Positions 1 to 8,060 of a DNA stretch of 8,060 nt are shown in pieces (the stretch's first letter is position 1; each line of letters starts with the position of its first letter). The stretch is taken from the IMG/VR virus record IMGVR_UViG_2711768034_000011. The stretch is one strand, 5' to 3'. The stretch comes from a virus (lineage: Duplodnaviria > Heunggongvirae > Uroviricota > Caudoviricetes). The translations under genes and the position numbers were made by a program. The notes below the pieces were generated by a model. That model was not told where the DNA came from. It searched no databases and worked only from the letters and a program-made list of their open reading frames with translations.

Positions 1-1254
1 ATGCTGGAACAAATGGGCATTGCCGCGAAGCAAGCCTCGTATAAATTAGCGCAACTCTCCAGCCGCGAAAAAAATCGCGTGCTGGAAAAAATCGCCGATG
101 AACTGGAAGCACAAAGCGAAATCATCCTCAACGCTAACGCCCAGGATGTTGCTGACGCGCGAGCCAATGGCCTTAGCGAAGCGATGCTTGACCGTCTGGC
201 ACTGACGCCCGCACGGCTGAAAGGCATTGCCGACGATGTACGTCAGGTGTGCAACCTCGCCGATCCGGTGGGGCAGGTAATCGATGGCGGCGTACTGGAC
301 AGCGGCCTGCGTCTTGAGCGTCGTCGCGTACCGCTGGGGGTTATTGGCGTGATTTATGAAGCGCGCCCGAACGTGACGGTTGATGTCGCTTCGCTGTGCC
401 TGAAAACCGGTAATGCGGTGATCCTGCGCGGTGGCAAAGAAACGTGTCGCACTAACGCTGCAACGGTGGCGGTGATTCAGGACGCCCTGAAATCCTGCGG
501 CTTACCGGCGGGTGCCGTGCAGGCGATTGATAATCCTGACCGTGCGCTGGTCAGTGAAATGCTGCGTATGGATAAATACATCGACATGCTGATCCCGCGT
601 GGTGGCGCTGGTTTGCATAAACTGTGCCGTGAACAGTCGACAATCCCGGTGATCACAGGTGGTATAGGCGTATGCCATATTTACGTTGATGAAAGTGTAG
701 AGATCGCTGAAGCATTAAAAGTGATCGTCAACGCGAAAACTCAGCGTCCGAGCACATGTAATACGGTTGAAACGTTGCTGGTGAATAAAAACATCGCCGA
801 TAGCTTCCTGCCCGCATTAAGCAAACAAATGGCGGAAAGCGGCGTGACATTACACGCAGATGCAGCTGCACTGGCGCAGTTGCAGGCAGGCCCTGCGAAG
901 GTGGTTGCTGTTAAAGCCGAAGAGTATGACGATGAGTTTCTGTCATTAGATTTGAACGTCAAAATCGTCAGCGATCTTGACGATGCCATCGCCCATATTC
1001 GTGAACACGGCACACAACACTCCGATGCGATCCTGACCCGCGATATGCGCAACGCCCAGCGTTTTGTTAACGAAGTGGATTCGTCCGCTGTTTACGTTAA
1101 CGCCTCTACGCGTTTTACCGACGGCGGCCAGTTTGGTCTGGGTGCGGAAGTGGCGGTAAGCACACAAAAACTCCACGCGCGTGGCCCAATGGGGCTGGAA
1201 GCACTGACCACTTACAAGTGGATCGGCATTGGTGATTACACCATTCGTGCGTAA
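1..1254 (+). CDS. proA: Gamma-glutamyl phosphate reductase (glutamate-5-semialdehyde dehydrogenase), complete 417 aa
   Basis: 417-aa ORF starting at window position 1; I recognise the sequence as enterobacterial ProA; location immediately upstream of thrW matches the known proBA-thrW arrangement (established knowledge). Confidence 0.95.
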
Positions 1255-1368
1255 ATAAAACCGGGTGATGCAAAAGTAGCCATTTGATTCACAAGGCCAT
1301 TGACGCATCGCCCGGTTAGTTTTAACCTTGTCCACCGTGATTCACGTTCGTGAACATGTCCTTTCAGG

Positions 1369-1444
1369 GCCGATATAGCTCAGTTGGTAGAGCAGCGCAT
1401 TCGTAATGCGAAGGTCGTAGGTTCGACTCCTATTATCGGCACCA
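1369..1444 (+). tRNA. thrW: tRNA-Thr (anticodon CGU), 76 nt with encoded CCA end
   Basis: Sequence GCCGATATAGCTCAGTTGGTAGAGCAGCGCATTCGTAATGCGAAGGTCGTAGGTTCGACTCCTATTATCGGCACCA; 7-bp acceptor stem GCCGATA/TATCGGC, D-loop and GTTCGACTCC T-arm motifs, anticodon CGT in the anticodon loop. A known phage integration target. Confidence 0.93.
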
Positions 1445-2622: not shown

Positions 2623-2849
2623 TTTCTTTCCTCTGTTATGCCATCACCCGCGCTCACCTGGACAGTATGCAGCGGAGACTGAAGCGCCGCAATGCAGGCT
2701 TGTCGTGTTGTGAGGTAAGGAGATTTTAGTTTAGTGGGGTCTTTGCGTGTTGCCTGTAGGCGGCCTGTTCGTATCCAGTTGGTAGCGGTAGGTCTGGATA
2801 TCTTGAGAAACTGACAGGCCTCATCGAGTGTGAGGCTGTATGATTCCAT
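2499..2849 (-). CDS. xis: Excisionase / AlpA-like helix-turn-helix DNA-binding protein (116 aa from ATG at 2849; the listed ORF extends to a GTG at 2879)
   Basis: HTH-like segment [26 protein letters not shown]; AGAGGT SD 4 nt before the ATG at 2849; sits immediately upstream of int on the same strand. The 3' end overlaps the int 5' end by 124 nt in another frame; the 116-aa size matches my recollection of P22 Xis. Confidence 0.7.
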
Positions 2850-3099
2850 GGTTACCTCTGCTTTTTGAACGCATGTCACGTAACTTCTTAATGTGTTCTG
2901 CCGTTTCGATCTCTTCTGCTATCCGATCTGCATCAGCTTTATTCACAGGTTCAAAGTCATGATTAAAGCGGAACATGCTGGCGATACATGTTCCGCCTTT
3001 TCGGATGTAGTGAACTTTGTTGTGGGTAGAACGCAGGATTTTGCAGGGAGTGCCGTGGTGGTCGACGTACCAGGTGTTAGGAAAAATGATTCTGAACAT
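2821..3099 (-). CDS. Hypothetical phage protein, 92 aa, function unknown
   Basis: ORF with SD GAGGTG 5 nt upstream of the ATG at 3099; co-directional and tightly packed with neighbours (29-nt overlap with the xis start). I do not recognise the family. Confidence 0.6.
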   Translation of the reverse strand: MFRIIFPNTWYVDHHGTPCKILRSTHNKVHYIRKGGTCIASMFRFNHDFEPVNKADADRIAEEIETAEHIKKLRDMRSKSRGNHGIIQPHTR

Positions 3100-3371: not shown

Positions 3372-3467
3372 TTAATCCCTGAATTGTTGGTTAATACGCT
3401 TGAGGGTGAATGCGAATAATAAAAAAGGAGCCTGTAGCTCCCTGATGATTTTGCTTTTCATGTTCAT
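3372..3467 (-). CDS. Putative small ORF, 31 aa (MNMKSKIIRELQAPFLLFAFTLKRINQQFRD), not in the supplied ORF track
   Basis: First ATG overlaps the stop of the upstream 72-aa gene as ATGA; AAGGAG lies 8 nt before the in-frame second ATG; its TAA stop is 6 nt before the TraR-like ATG. It encloses a hairpin plus U-tract, so it may instead be a terminator or attenuator. Confidence 0.3.
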   Translation of the reverse strand: MNMKSKIIRELQAPFLLFAFTLKRINQQFRD

Positions 3468-3679
3468 CGCTCCTTAAAGACGCCGTTTAACATGCCGATC
3501 GCCAGGCTTAAATGAGTCGGTGTGAATCCCATCAGCGTTACCGTTTCGCGGTGCTTCTTCAGTACGCTACGGCAAATGTCATCGACGTTTTTATCCGGAA
3601 ACTGCTGTCTGGCTTTTTTGATTTCAGAATTAGCCTGACGGGCTATGCTGCGAAGGGCGTTTTCCTGCTGAGGTGTCAT
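3464..3679 (-). CDS. Hypothetical phage protein, 72 aa from ATG at 3679 (listed ORF extends to a TTG at 3778)
   Basis: ATG at 3679 overlaps the stop of the upstream 27-aa ORF (ATGA); its stop overlaps the start of the downstream small ORF (ATGA). Product MTPQQENALRSIARQANSEIKKARQQF... is not recognised. Confidence 0.55.
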   Translation of the reverse strand: MTPQQENALRSIARQANSEIKKARQQFPDKNVDDICRSVLKKHRETVTLMGFTPTHLSLAIGMLNGVFKER

Positions 3680-3759
3680 TGAACAAGTCCCATGTCGGCA
3701 AGCATAAGCACACAGAATATGAAGCCCGCTGCCAGAAAAATGCATTCCGTGGTTGTCAT
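3676..3759 (-). CDS. Putative small hydrophobic peptide, 27 aa (MTTTECIFLAAGFIFCVLMLADMGLVQ), not in the supplied ORF track
   Basis: Strong SD GGGAGG (3764-3769) 4 nt upstream of the ATG at 3759; ATG overlaps the methyltransferase stop (ATGA) and its TGA overlaps the next gene ATG (ATGA); hydrophobic core long enough for one membrane helix. Confidence 0.4.
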   Translation of the reverse strand: MTTTECIFLAAGFIFCVLMLADMGLVQ

Positions 3760-4313
3760 GCAGCCTCCCGACGGGCAAGAATCCTTGAGCCGAACGCCAT
3801 CAACTCTCCACGATCAACGGTCGTAAAGTGGCAGTGTGTACGGGGGTATGGGTGCCAGATAATGAGCATCGAGCCTTTATTATTTCCACTGACGGGTTTC
3901 TCAGTGAGTGGGTTAATAAATGCCAGTCGTCCTGCCGTGATGAATCTGACCTCACTGGCGGTTTGTATCGCTTCATGAAACCATCCGACAGATGTGTCAG
4001 CAGGCAATAACATTACACATCCCACACTACTGAATTTGTTTTCAGTGGCTGCCTTTTTCACAAAAGGGGAAATATTGCTGTATGGTGGATTCAACCAGAC
4101 ATAACCAGAGGCATATCCCATTGCTTCAGGCCATGAAGTGGTTAATGTGTTCTGCTCCTGTGAGATAAAAAGCCGACATAGTCGGTTTTTTTCGCTGGCT
4201 GCAGCATCAAGTTGAAAAACGAACTCTGCATTAAGCGCAGCAAAAATCTCTGGTGGTGTGCGCCAGCTGTCGCGATGTTCGGCAGGAGTATTGCTTCCGG
4301 TGAAATCAGTCAT
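3756..4313 (-). CDS. Phage-type DNA N6-adenine methyltransferase (185 aa)
   Basis: NPPY catalytic motif (WLNPPYSN) and N-terminal W-x-TPPEIF...LDAAAS pattern typical of the phage N-6-adenine methyltransferase family; no adjacent restriction endonuclease gene. Confidence 0.85.
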   Translation of the reverse strand: MTDFTGSNTPAEHRDSWRTPPEIFAALNAEFVFQLDAAASEKNRLCRLFISQEQNTLTTSWPEAMGYASGYVWLNPPYSNISPFVKKAATENKFSSVGCVMLLPADTSVGWFHEAIQTASEVRFITAGRLAFINPLTEKPVSGNNKGSMLIIWHPYPRTHCHFTTVDRGELMAFGSRILARREAA

Positions 4314-4369
4314 ACAGCCCCCCGTTTATTATTTATCTCCTCAGCCAGCCGCTGTGCTTTCAGTGGATT

Positions 4370-4464: not shown

Positions 4465-5145
4465 TCATCGCCATTGCTCCCCAAATACAAAACCAATTTC
4501 AGCCAGTGCCTCGTCCATTTTTTCGATGAACTCCGGCACCATCTCGTCAAAATTCGCCATGTACTTTTCATCCCGCTCAACCACGACATAATGCAGGCCT
4601 TCACGCTTCATGCGCGGGTCATAGTTGGCAAAGTACCAGGCATCTTTTCGCGTCACCCACATGCTGTACTGCACCTGGGCCATGTAAGCCGACTTTATGG
4701 CCTCGAAACCACCGAGCCGGAACTTCATGAAATCCCGGGAGGTAAACGGGCATTTCAGCTCAAGGCCATTGCCGTCACTGCATAAACCATCGGGAGAGCA
4801 GGCGGTACGCATACTTTCGTCGCGATAGATGATCGGGGATTCAATAACATTCACGCCGGAAGTGAACTCAAACAGGGTTCTGGCGTCGTTCTCGTACTGT
4901 TTTCCCCATGCCAGCGCCTTAGCATTAACTTCCGTAGCCACACCGGTGCAAACCTCAGCCAGCAGGGTGTGGAAGTAGGACATTTTCATGTCAGGCCACT
5001 TCTTTCCGGAGCGGGGTTTTGCTATCACGTTGTGAACTTCTGAAGCGGTGATGACGCCGAGCCGTAATTTGTGCCACGCATCATCCCCTTGTTCGACAGC
5101 TCTCACATCGATCCCGGTACGCTGCAGGATAATGTCCGGTGTCAT
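4465..5145 (-). CDS. exo: Lambda-type exonuclease (Red alpha), 226 aa
   Basis: Near-identical to the phage lambda Exo sequence as I recall it ([40 protein letters not shown]...); 4-nt ATGA overlap with bet as in lambda. Confidence 0.95.
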
Positions 5146-5927
5146 GCAGCCACCTTCTGTTCAGAGGCTTTCTGTTTCAGGAATCCAAGAGCTTTCACTG
5201 CTTCGGCCTGTGTCAGTTCCGACGATGCGCGAATGTCGCGGCGAAATATCTGGGAACAGAGCGGCAATAAGTCGTCATCCCATGTTTTGTCCAGGGCAAT
5301 CAGCAGAGTGTTAATCTCCTGCATGGTTTCATCGTTAACCGGAGTGATGTCGCGTTCCGGCTGACGTTCTGCAGTGTATGCGGTATTTTCGACAATGCGC
5401 TCGGCTTCATCCTTGTCATAGATACCAGCAAATCCGAAGGCGAGACGGGCACACTGAATCATGGCTTTATGCCGTAACATCCGTTTAGGATGCGACTGCC
5501 ACGGCCCCGTGATTTCTCTGCCTTCACGGGTTTTGAATGGTTCGCGGCGGCATTCATCCATCCACTCGGTAACGCAGATCGGATGATTACGGTCCTTGCG
5601 GTAAATCCGGCATGTACAGGATTCATTGTCCTGCTCAAAGTCCATGCCATCAAACTGCTGGTTTTCATTGATGATGCGGGACCAGCCATCAACGCCCACC
5701 ACCGGAACGATGCCGTTCTGCTTATCAGGGAAGGCGTAAATTTCTTTCGTCCACGGATTAAGGCCGTACTGGTTGGCGACGATCAACAATGCGATGAACT
5801 GCGCATCGCTGGCATCACCTTTAAATGCCGTCTGGCGAAGAGTGGTGATCAGTTCCTGTGGGTCGACAGAATCCATGCCGACACGTTCAGCCAGCTTCCC
5901 TGCCAGCGTTGCGAGTGCTGTACTCAT
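5142..5927 (-). CDS. bet: Lambda-type single-strand annealing protein Bet (Red beta), 261 aa
   Basis: Near-identical to lambda Bet as recalled ([66 protein letters not shown]...). Confidence 0.95.
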
Positions 5928-6448: not shown

Positions 6449-6581
6449 TTTTTGGGACTCCTGGCTGATTAAGTATGTCGATAAGGCGTTTCCATCCGTC
6501 ACGTAATTTACGGGTGATTCGTTCAAGTAAAGATTCGGAAGGGCAGCCAGCAACAGGCCACCCTGCAATGGCATATTGCAT
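6417..6581 (-). CDS. cIII: Lambda-type CIII (FtsH/HflB inhibitor), 54 aa
   Basis: Below the ORF-track length cutoff. Manual translation of the minus strand from the ATG at 6581 gives MQYAIAGWPVAGCP... and ends ...[15 protein letters not shown] with TAA at 6417-6419; AAGGAG SD 7 nt upstream; 32-nt overlap with kil as in lambda. Confidence 0.85.
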   Translation of the reverse strand: MQYAIAGWPVAGCPSESLLERITRKLRDGWKRLIDILNQPGVPKNGSNTYGYPD

Positions 6582-6653
6582 GGTGTGCTCCTTATTTATA
6601 CATAACGAAAAACGCCTCGAGTGAAGCGTTATTGGTATGCGGTAACGCCGCGC

Positions 6654-7763: not shown

Positions 7764-8060
7764 GGTAATGACTCCAACTTATTGATAGTGTTTTATGTTC
7801 AGATAATGCCCGATGACTTTGTCATGCAGCTCCACCGATTTTGAGAACGACAGCGACTTCCGTCCCAGCCGTGCCAGGTGCTGCCTCAGATTCAGGTTAT
7901 GCCGCTCAATTCGCTGCGTATATCGCTTGCTGATTACGTGCAGCTTTCCCTTCAGGCGGGATTCATACAGCGGCCAGCCATCCGTCATCCATATCACCAC
8001 GTCAAAGGGTGACAGCAGGCTCATAAGACGCCCCAGCGTCGCCATAGTGCGCTCACCGAA
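7764..8060 (-). mobile_element. IS1, partial (right inverted-repeat end, 297 of about 768 bp; continues beyond the window)
   Basis: Begins with the IS1 terminal inverted repeat GGTAATGACTCCAACTTATTGAT at 7764 and contains the insB 3' coding region on the minus strand. Confidence 0.95.
7779..8060 (-). CDS. insB: IS1 transposase InsB, 3' portion (5' end lies beyond the window)
   Basis: Translation ...[93 protein letters not shown] matches IS1 InsB as recalled. Confidence 0.9.

Follow-up and report, generated by a model that had tools for sequence, protein, structure and literature searches.

Small hydrophobic proteins that bind membrane complexes, such as KdpF, AcrZ, MgtS and CydX, are about 27–50 amino acids (aa) long and form a single helix, KdpF being devoid of Lys and Arg; type I toxins such as Ibs, ShoB, DinQ, TisB and Hok, with 19–50 aa, are hydrophobic as well. 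We are concerned here with a short open reading frame (ORF) of 27 codons, which lies on the minus strand of a stretch of 8,060 nucleotides (nt) of viral DNA (IMG/VR record IMGVR_UViG_2711768034_000011, Caudoviricetes). This stretch, taken at its full length, is termed the window, and positions without further indication refer to it. An identical ORF, encoding an identical peptide, is present in phage lambda (complement 30925..31008). It belongs to the exo-xis region, the genes of which are transcribed early from pL (PMC8614690). There, a gene named orf61 has been annotated and studied in its long-frame form, the 93-aa Orf61 of phages 933W and Phi24B (PMC6213356, PMC8614690), models of which are inconsistent between predictors for residues 1–23 (PMC8614690). 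In lambda, a frameshift mutant of orf61 shows delayed phage development after induction and altered kinetics of prophage induction (PMC4195576). Ribosome profiling of lambda is also credited, in a review, with the discovery of a 31-aa peptide, orf2313 (PMC8614690).

The 27-codon ORF sits in this region between orf63, the place of which is taken in the window by a DNA methyltransferase gene, and a 71-aa gene that makes the core of orf61. Judging from the comparison of many copies of the locus, it is probably a genuine coding gene. An earlier reading of the letters of the window (the original prediction) had singled it out as an unlisted hydrophobic ORF, well provided with a Shine-Dalgarno (SD) sequence and coupled to its neighbours on both sides. 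Its features are as follows.

3676..3759, minus strand: the 27-codon ORF with its stop, starting at ATG and encoding MTTTECIFLAAGFIFCVLMLADMGLVQ, as read from the ORF list and the sequence.
3764..3769, minus strand: SD sequence GGGAGG, inside the last methyltransferase codons, 4 nt before the ATG.
3760..3763, minus strand: spacer CTGC between the SD and the ATG, read from the sequence.
3756..3759, minus strand: first ATGA, in which the methyltransferase stop TGA (3756..3758) overlaps the start ATG of the 27-codon ORF (3757..3759).
3676..3679, minus strand: second ATGA, in which the stop TGA of the 27-codon ORF (3676..3678) overlaps the ATG of the 71-aa gene (3677..3679).
3756..3765, minus strand: junction motif GGCTGCATGA, comprising the 3' end of the SD, the spacer and the overlapping start and stop, retrieved by a motif count.

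The coordinates confirm that the start and the stop are both caught in an ATGA overlap. As had been claimed, such packing is unlikely by chance, with a prior of about 0.6% (1/4 x 1/3 x 1/4 x 0.28), in which the probability of an open frame was computed (0.276) and the rest is rough arithmetic. The neighbouring genes of the operon are packed by ATGA overlaps too. The annotation provided by PGAP leaves 76 unannotated nt between the methyltransferase and the 71-aa gene, the sole such gap if the 27-codon ORF is ignored, and the ORF fits it exactly. The SD is strong indeed: its predicted pairing with the anti-SD amounts to -10.3 kcal/mol, more than at any other of the eleven operon starts that we tested, and within the top 1–2% or so of random 20-mers from the window. 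The distance to the ATG, described beforehand as optimal, was overstated, since a spacer of 4 nt is among the shorter ones in common use; the same spacing is used by the exo and methyltransferase starts. The 10-mer found at the start recurs at the bet/exo junction (5142..5151, minus strand) and at the orf60a/methyltransferase junction (4310..4319, minus strand), and the somewhat relaxed GGCTGYATGA has four matches in the window where 0.03 would be expected, three of them on the minus strand and all three exactly at gene junctions. The start of the 27-codon ORF thus carries the junction signature of two undisputed genes, exo and the methyltransferase. The fourth match, GGCTGTATGA, at 2834..2843 on the plus strand, precedes a 40-codon ORF (2840..2962, plus strand) that is antisense to the DUF4222 gene.

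Conservation was studied at 355 loci drawn from IMG/VR, metagenomes and genomes, from which 288 copies could be used, representing 107 distinct haplotypes; the metagenome scan was anchored on a 17-mer, and many chance matches had to be filtered out. The ORF is intact in 286 of 289 copies, the three broken ones being L007 (a 14-nt deletion), L244 (a 1-nt deletion, at a coverage of 1.3) and L254 (stop lost), and its peptide is identical in 251 of the 287 gapless copies. The first ATGA is kept in 287 of the 289 copies. At the second junction, ATGA (266/289) alternates with GTGA (22/289), a change that is silent in the 27-codon ORF and preserves a start codon for the next gene. Codons 2–26 harbour 29 distinct variants, which count as 15 synonymous (S) and 14 non-synonymous (N) in the frame of the ORF, where a synonymous fraction of 0.28 is expected (P = 0.005, omega about 0.36). 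Among variants seen in at least two copies, the figures become 12 S to 5 N (P = 0.0003, omega about 0.16), and when carriers are counted, synonymous variants occupy 340 copies and non-synonymous ones 33. Read in the long frame of orf61, the same variants give 9 S to 20 N (omega about 0.84), or 4 to 13 for the recurrent ones (omega about 1.25), and in the third frame 5 S to 24 N, with no excess. The frame of the ORF scores best among all six, and the 71-aa gene, taken as a control in its own frame, yields 25 S to 31 N (P = 0.003), so that the second ATGA is the precise point at which one frame takes over from the other as the one enriched in synonymous changes. Among phage haplotypes, ev110 diverges most, and it conforms to the rule, with five synonymous and two non-synonymous changes among its seven differences. 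Insertions and deletions are not more frequent over the ORF than over the flanking gene. The comparison of synonymous with non-synonymous changes, suggested at the outset as a check, therefore speaks for the ORF by a synonymous excess in its own frame.

The peptide itself opens with a polar N-terminus, MTTTE, followed by a hydrophobic stretch in which two segments may be distinguished.

3682..3744, minus strand: hydrophobic segment, codons 6–26 (CIFLAAGFIFCVLMLADMGLV), with a Kyte-Doolittle mean of 2.4–2.9.
3697..3744, minus strand: uncharged core C6–A21, 16 residues, codons 6–21, read from the sequence.

Its grand average of hydropathy (GRAVY), 1.62, is the highest among the 99 window ORFs of 20–60 aa (mean -0.03, standard deviation 0.65), and when the ORF's own bases are shuffled, no more than 0.18% of the sequences that stay open match it, which substantiates the strong hydrophobicity announced by the original prediction. 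Charge is confined to Glu5 and Asp22; in rare variants, Gly or Asn takes the place of the latter. The summed Hessa dGapp is -3.5 for the 15-residue window C6–L20 and about 0 for windows of 19–21 residues, which include Asp22. Neither Pfam nor PHROGs offered a family for the peptide, and a tblastn search of phages returned nothing beyond the lambda and Shiga-toxin (Stx) phage group. Other possible natures of the stretch were tried and rejected: an RNA element (no Rfam hit at the locus, and a fold no better than that of shuffled sequences, z = +0.8), a programmed frameshift into the 71-aa frame (no canonical slippery heptamer seen by eye, the only candidate being a U5 run at codons 7–8) and a lipoprotein (no lipobox seen on reading the sequence).

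To understand how such a gene might operate, two further features must be brought in.

3464..3679, minus strand: the 71-aa gene, core of "orf61" (PHROG 303), with the start retained by PGAP; its own SD is weak (dG -3.9 kcal/mol).
3743..3745, minus strand: ATG of the 93-aa "Orf61" of 933W and Phi24B, in the long frame, with an SD dG of -2.6; we do not consider it to be a real start.

Ribosomes that end translation of the upstream gene at the first ATGA would restart at the overlapping ATG, with the assistance, in the prophage of the window, of the strong GGGAGG. In contexts of the lambda type the SD is weak, and termination followed by reinitiation would then probably be the main route. The product would be a peptide of 27 residues, MTTTE and then a hydrophobic helix of 16–21 residues, able to enter the inner membrane or to bind a hydrophobic partner. 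Termination at the second ATGA would in turn hand the ribosomes over to the weakly initiated 71-aa gene, in the manner of a translational relay, and the 71-aa gene is probably translated through this coupling. Since purifying selection bears on the amino-acid sequence, the peptide should have a function of its own, and a constrained sequence at this place suggests two roles at once, a functional peptide and a relay. Most plausibly the peptide modulates a membrane-associated target of the host or of the phage early in infection, and any more specific function could be proposed with low confidence only. The behaviour of the locus fits what the original prediction had asserted, a genuine and translationally coupled small ORF. 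Taken as a whole (a real gene of the pL operon, coupled to its neighbours, making a functional hydrophobic peptide while relaying ribosomes, under a long orf61 frame that has been mis-drawn), we hold this explanation to be likely.

Several observations weigh against it. The test of selection rests on some 30 variants, because all copies are at least about 90% identical and are confined to Escherichia phages, no distant homologue having been found. The antisense frame that shares wobble positions with the ORF displays a weaker shadow of the same signal. In the copy from Escherichia sp. E1V33 (L007), the 14-nt deletion removes the N-terminal half of the peptide and brings the junction ATG, together with its GGAGG SD, into the frame of the 71-aa gene, creating a 93-aa fusion; and CE10 possesses the 71-aa gene without any 27-codon ORF. 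The peptide is thus dispensable in some lineages. The review of lambda ribosome profiling gives only two novel peptides in the region, of 7 aa and 31 aa (PMC8614690). Finally, insertion into the membrane is plausible and uncertain at the same time: the uncharged core has 16 residues, Asp22 interrupts the hydrophobic stretch, and the lack of Lys and Arg leaves no flank for the positive-inside rule.

It might be asked, then, whether the act of translation is all that matters, the peptide having no function of its own. The two ATGA overlaps and the weak SD of the 71-aa gene fit this idea, and so do the exceptions just mentioned: in L007 the peptide is lost, yet the junction ATG and its SD drive the 71-aa core as a fusion, and in CE10, where the 71-aa gene directly follows another gene and keeps the same Met-Thr start, it has a better SD of its own. 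An open frame would, however, suffice for such a purpose, and the constraint on the amino-acid sequence (the low omega, the predominance of a single peptide, the rarity of non-synonymous variants) goes well beyond this; the extreme hydrophobicity would also be left unexplained. We therefore see this alternative as unlikely.

A still less favourable view takes the stretch as a non-coding spacer, open by chance, which looks conserved for no other reason than recent common ancestry. The narrow range and high identity of the copies, the lack of a family match and a chance prior that is small yet not negligible can all be invoked in its favour. Yet a spacer would not be expected to vary with a period of three and a synonymous bias, nor to change frame exactly at an ATGA; its insertions and deletions are no commoner than those of the flanking gene, a strong SD and a shared junction motif stand at its start, and nothing in the fold or in Rfam points to an RNA. 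The chance that it is right appears to us slim.

The existing annotation amounts to a third alternative, in which the long frame supplies the N-terminus of Orf61 (104 aa from TTG 3778 in the window, 61 aa in lambda, 93 aa in 933W and Phi24B) and the 27-codon ORF is a by-product. This frame is open in the window, it is annotated in the lambda RefSeq record and in 933W, PHROG 303 was built on its 93-aa form, and the deletion in L007 yields a fusion of this kind, in frame, 93 aa long and served by a strong SD. Against this, its variants behave as neutral, and the most frequent allele, in which codon 4 of the 27-codon ORF reads ACT, places a TGA in it just before the 93-aa ATG in 125 of the 289 copies. 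Its upstream start changes with each mosaic context, the 93-aa ATG is without an SD worth the name, PGAP and CE10 both point to the 71-aa ATG, and the inconsistency of the predictors falls on the very residues in question (PMC8614690). We regard it as very improbable. The original prediction had named, as what would tell against it, homologues that disrupt the ORF while preserving the longer frame. As a rule the reverse is found, with an ORF that is nearly always intact and a long frame that is neutral and often stopped; L007 nevertheless carries a disruption of exactly that kind.

The last alternative, a signal belonging to the opposite strand (the plus-strand ORF 3692..3826, of 44 aa, with coincident wobble positions, or an antisense RNA), can be dismissed as the least credible of all, for although the frame is open and synonymous changes are in lesser excess there (11:18, P = 0.06; 9:8, P = 0.009 for recurrent variants), that signal is below the one of the sense strand, the ATG is lost through C66T in 10 copies, the ORF crosses the mosaic junction and so changes its C-terminus (61 aa in lambda, 44 aa here), no SD or promoter is suitably placed, no promoter and terminator pair covering the 27-codon ORF was found on that strand, and the variants common at positions 72 and 81, synonymous in the sense ORF, fall outside the antisense one.

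Returning to the coupled, selected 27-codon gene, we may now reconsider orf61. The long frame (61 aa in lambda, 93 aa in 933W and Phi24B) appears to have been mis-drawn over the stretch: the true orf61 would be the 71-aa gene, the long-frame extension being unsupported by the comparison of copies, and the N-terminal 22–32 residues of the annotated Orf61 are probably not made. In the lambda RefSeq record, orf61 (complement 30839..31024, 61 aa) contains the 27-codon ORF in its 5' part, in another frame, and the annotated ATG (31024) falls in context-specific sequence, so that this start is not conserved. In addition, reference lambda (L001, NC_001416) has, around 30860–30870, a run AAAAAAA where the window has AAAAAA (3600–3612). 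The extra A truncates the 71-aa gene and was found in 19 of the sampled copies, all of them lambda itself. Lambda "orf61" is consequently a hybrid, with a junk N-terminus, 22 real residues and a frameshifted tail, and, the 71-aa gene being frameshifted there, it may have kept no intact coding unit other than the 27-codon ORF. The 71-aa protein often goes under the name "cell division protein ZapA" in PGAP annotation; its match to Pfam ZapA reaches 16.1 bits (E = 0.014) for a gathering threshold of 23.8, and that name therefore looks unreliable.

Published genetics can be read again in this light. The primer used for the lambda "orf61 frameshift" plasmid, CTTCATATTCTGTGTG*TTATGCTTGCCGACAT, lacks a C at the asterisk (PMC4195576, Table 1). 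In the 27-codon ORF the missing base opens codon 18 (CTT), at window 3706..3708, and the published orf61 deletions remove the 27-codon ORF as well. The phenotype of the frameshift cannot, as a result, be assigned to the annotated orf61; it may reflect the 27-aa peptide, and polar or RNA effects are also possible. One could go further and imagine that the 27-aa peptide, and not "Orf61", is the effector of the lambda orf61 phenotypes, a membrane-acting mini-protein tuning induction and the lysis-lysogeny decision in lambda and Stx phages, which we offer as a tentative and rather doubtful conjecture. Ribosome density over lambda orf61 would not separate the frames, because the 27-codon ORF and the truncated 71-aa frame tile the same interval. 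No mention of the 27-aa peptide was found in the exo-xis literature that we searched, and its sequence is absent from the papers searched and from the supplements of the O157 Sakai Ribo-seq study.

The gene is widespread within narrow limits. The same 84 nt are found in 933W, in VT2-Sakai and in about 175 records of lambdoid or Stx phages, and 3142 of the 5426 complete E. coli genomes possess them as well, at 4255 places in all. Among the places listed when the 84 nt were searched alone, all had the 71-aa gene on one side and orf63 or the methyltransferase on the other, apart from one partial match of 31 nt elsewhere. Homology between the window and lambda starts within 2 nt of the ATG, upstream of which stand the methyltransferase (window) or orf63/DUF1382 (lambda), sharing the TGA. 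The gene found upstream in the 289 sampled copies is orf63 in 252 (lambda included), the methyltransferase in 34 and a DGQHR-domain gene in one, while the constant partner of the ORF is the 71-aa gene downstream. Expression together with the methyltransferase, which the original prediction had suggested, is in this respect incidental. In L007, the upstream gene (371..1438 of that locus) encodes a 355-aa protein with a DGQHR motif, a third and unrelated module that ends in the same GGAGGCnGCATGA junction. As for the ORF being unlisted, this holds for RefSeq, PGAP and the phage records, in which it is unannotated, and fails for a handful of GenBank records and one UniRef entry, where the exact 27-aa sequence already figures as a "hypothetical protein". 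The cluster of the peptide at 90% identity (P0001) also holds two unrelated glycosyltransferase-like proteins of 428 aa, an artefact of database clustering.

Searched against 5.8 billion proteins, the 71-aa neighbour met Escherichia sequences only. Two matches to it, "51–52% identical" (P0090 and P0096), had to be discarded as distant homologues, being indel-ridden assemblies of the same DNA and hence uninformative. Matches from a scan of one genome per species were discarded likewise, as they were mostly lambda DNA in unrelated "genomes", that is, contamination. Lambda DNA with the lambda-specific frameshift was indeed seen (L008–L021) in assemblies of Shewanella, Pseudomonas, Bradyrhizobium, Paenibacillus, Kitasatospora, Oceanobacillus and others, and its presence in those public assemblies is almost certainly due to spike-in or cloning.

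The window as a whole is an E. coli lambdoid prophage integrated beside proA/tRNA-Thr, with 100% identity over the query to E. coli AR_452. Its minus strand carries, in order, gam, bet, exo, DUF1317 (orf60a-like), the methyltransferase, the 71-aa gene, TraR/DksA (orf73-like), DUF4222, xis and int. An Rfam match to Lambda_thermo, the cIII thermoregulator element, at 6536..6594 (minus strand, 88.5 bits) confirms an early-left operon of the lambda type. At the right end, an ORF of 88 aa (7779..8045, minus strand) presumably resembles the C-terminal part of IS1 InsB, a likeness which suggests insertion of an IS element in the immunity-proximal region of the prophage. Two neighbours of the 27-codon ORF and 71-aa gene complete the picture.

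3756..4313, minus strand: N-6-adenine DNA methyltransferase of the Dam family (Pfam PF05869, Dam), the gene upstream of the 27-codon ORF in this prophage.
3372..3467, minus strand: ORF of 31 aa (MNMKSKIIRELQAPFLLFAFTLKRINQQFRD), coupled by an ATGA to the stop of the 71-aa gene, taken from the ORF list.

The methyltransferase occupies a slot that is filled by orf63/DUF1382 in most relatives. The 31-aa ORF probably corresponds to orf2313, and an intrinsic terminator (3425..3443, minus strand) lies inside its coding sequence. On the plus strand, a promoter-like hexamer pair (3391..3420) and a terminator-like hairpin (3595..3612), both of them consensus matches only, could bound an RNA of about 190 nt antisense to the 3' part of the 71-aa gene, with no overlap with the 27-codon ORF.

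If the proposed explanation is true, its consequences extend to a phage as familiar as lambda, which would carry an unannotated and selected gene that about 58% of the complete genomes of E. coli possess too. Orf61 constructs, whether of 61 or of 93 aa, would carry an N-terminus that does not exist, and deletions would remove two genes together. This false N-terminus and this double loss may account for the insoluble protein and the ambiguous phenotypes that have been reported. The corrected map would set the 27-aa peptide apart from the 71-aa core, as candidates that can be separated, a useful repair to the gene map of lambda and of the Stx phages.

We can now situate the element among known systems. 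With lambda orf61, L0070 of 933W and vb_24B_7c of Phi24B (PHROG 303) it has in common the very same DNA, and it differs from them in reading frame, and therefore in its separate product. With the 31-aa ORF (orf2313) it shares its small size, an ATGA coupling to the preceding stop and the early-left transcript from pL; the two have no sequence relation, and the 31-aa peptide has been reported as occupied by ribosomes whereas the 27-aa one is unreported (PMC8614690). The likeness to type I toxins, which had led the original prediction to call the peptide toxin-like, is limited to size and hydrophobicity. The 27-codon ORF lacks an antisense RNA partner, a promoter of its own and any match in Rfam or in protein families, it is embedded by start and stop overlaps in the operon that runs from gam, bet and exo to orf61, and the qualification is without support. 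With KdpF, AcrZ, MgtS and CydX the predicted peptide has in common its size and a single hydrophobic helix, and, with KdpF, the lack of Lys and Arg. No sequence similarity to them was found, and the 27-aa peptide stands apart as phage-encoded, made from a tightly coupled operon and built on an uncharged core of 16 residues. Sequence comparison thus makes it most likely that the 27-codon ORF is the gene of a small, translationally coupled hydrophobic phage protein.

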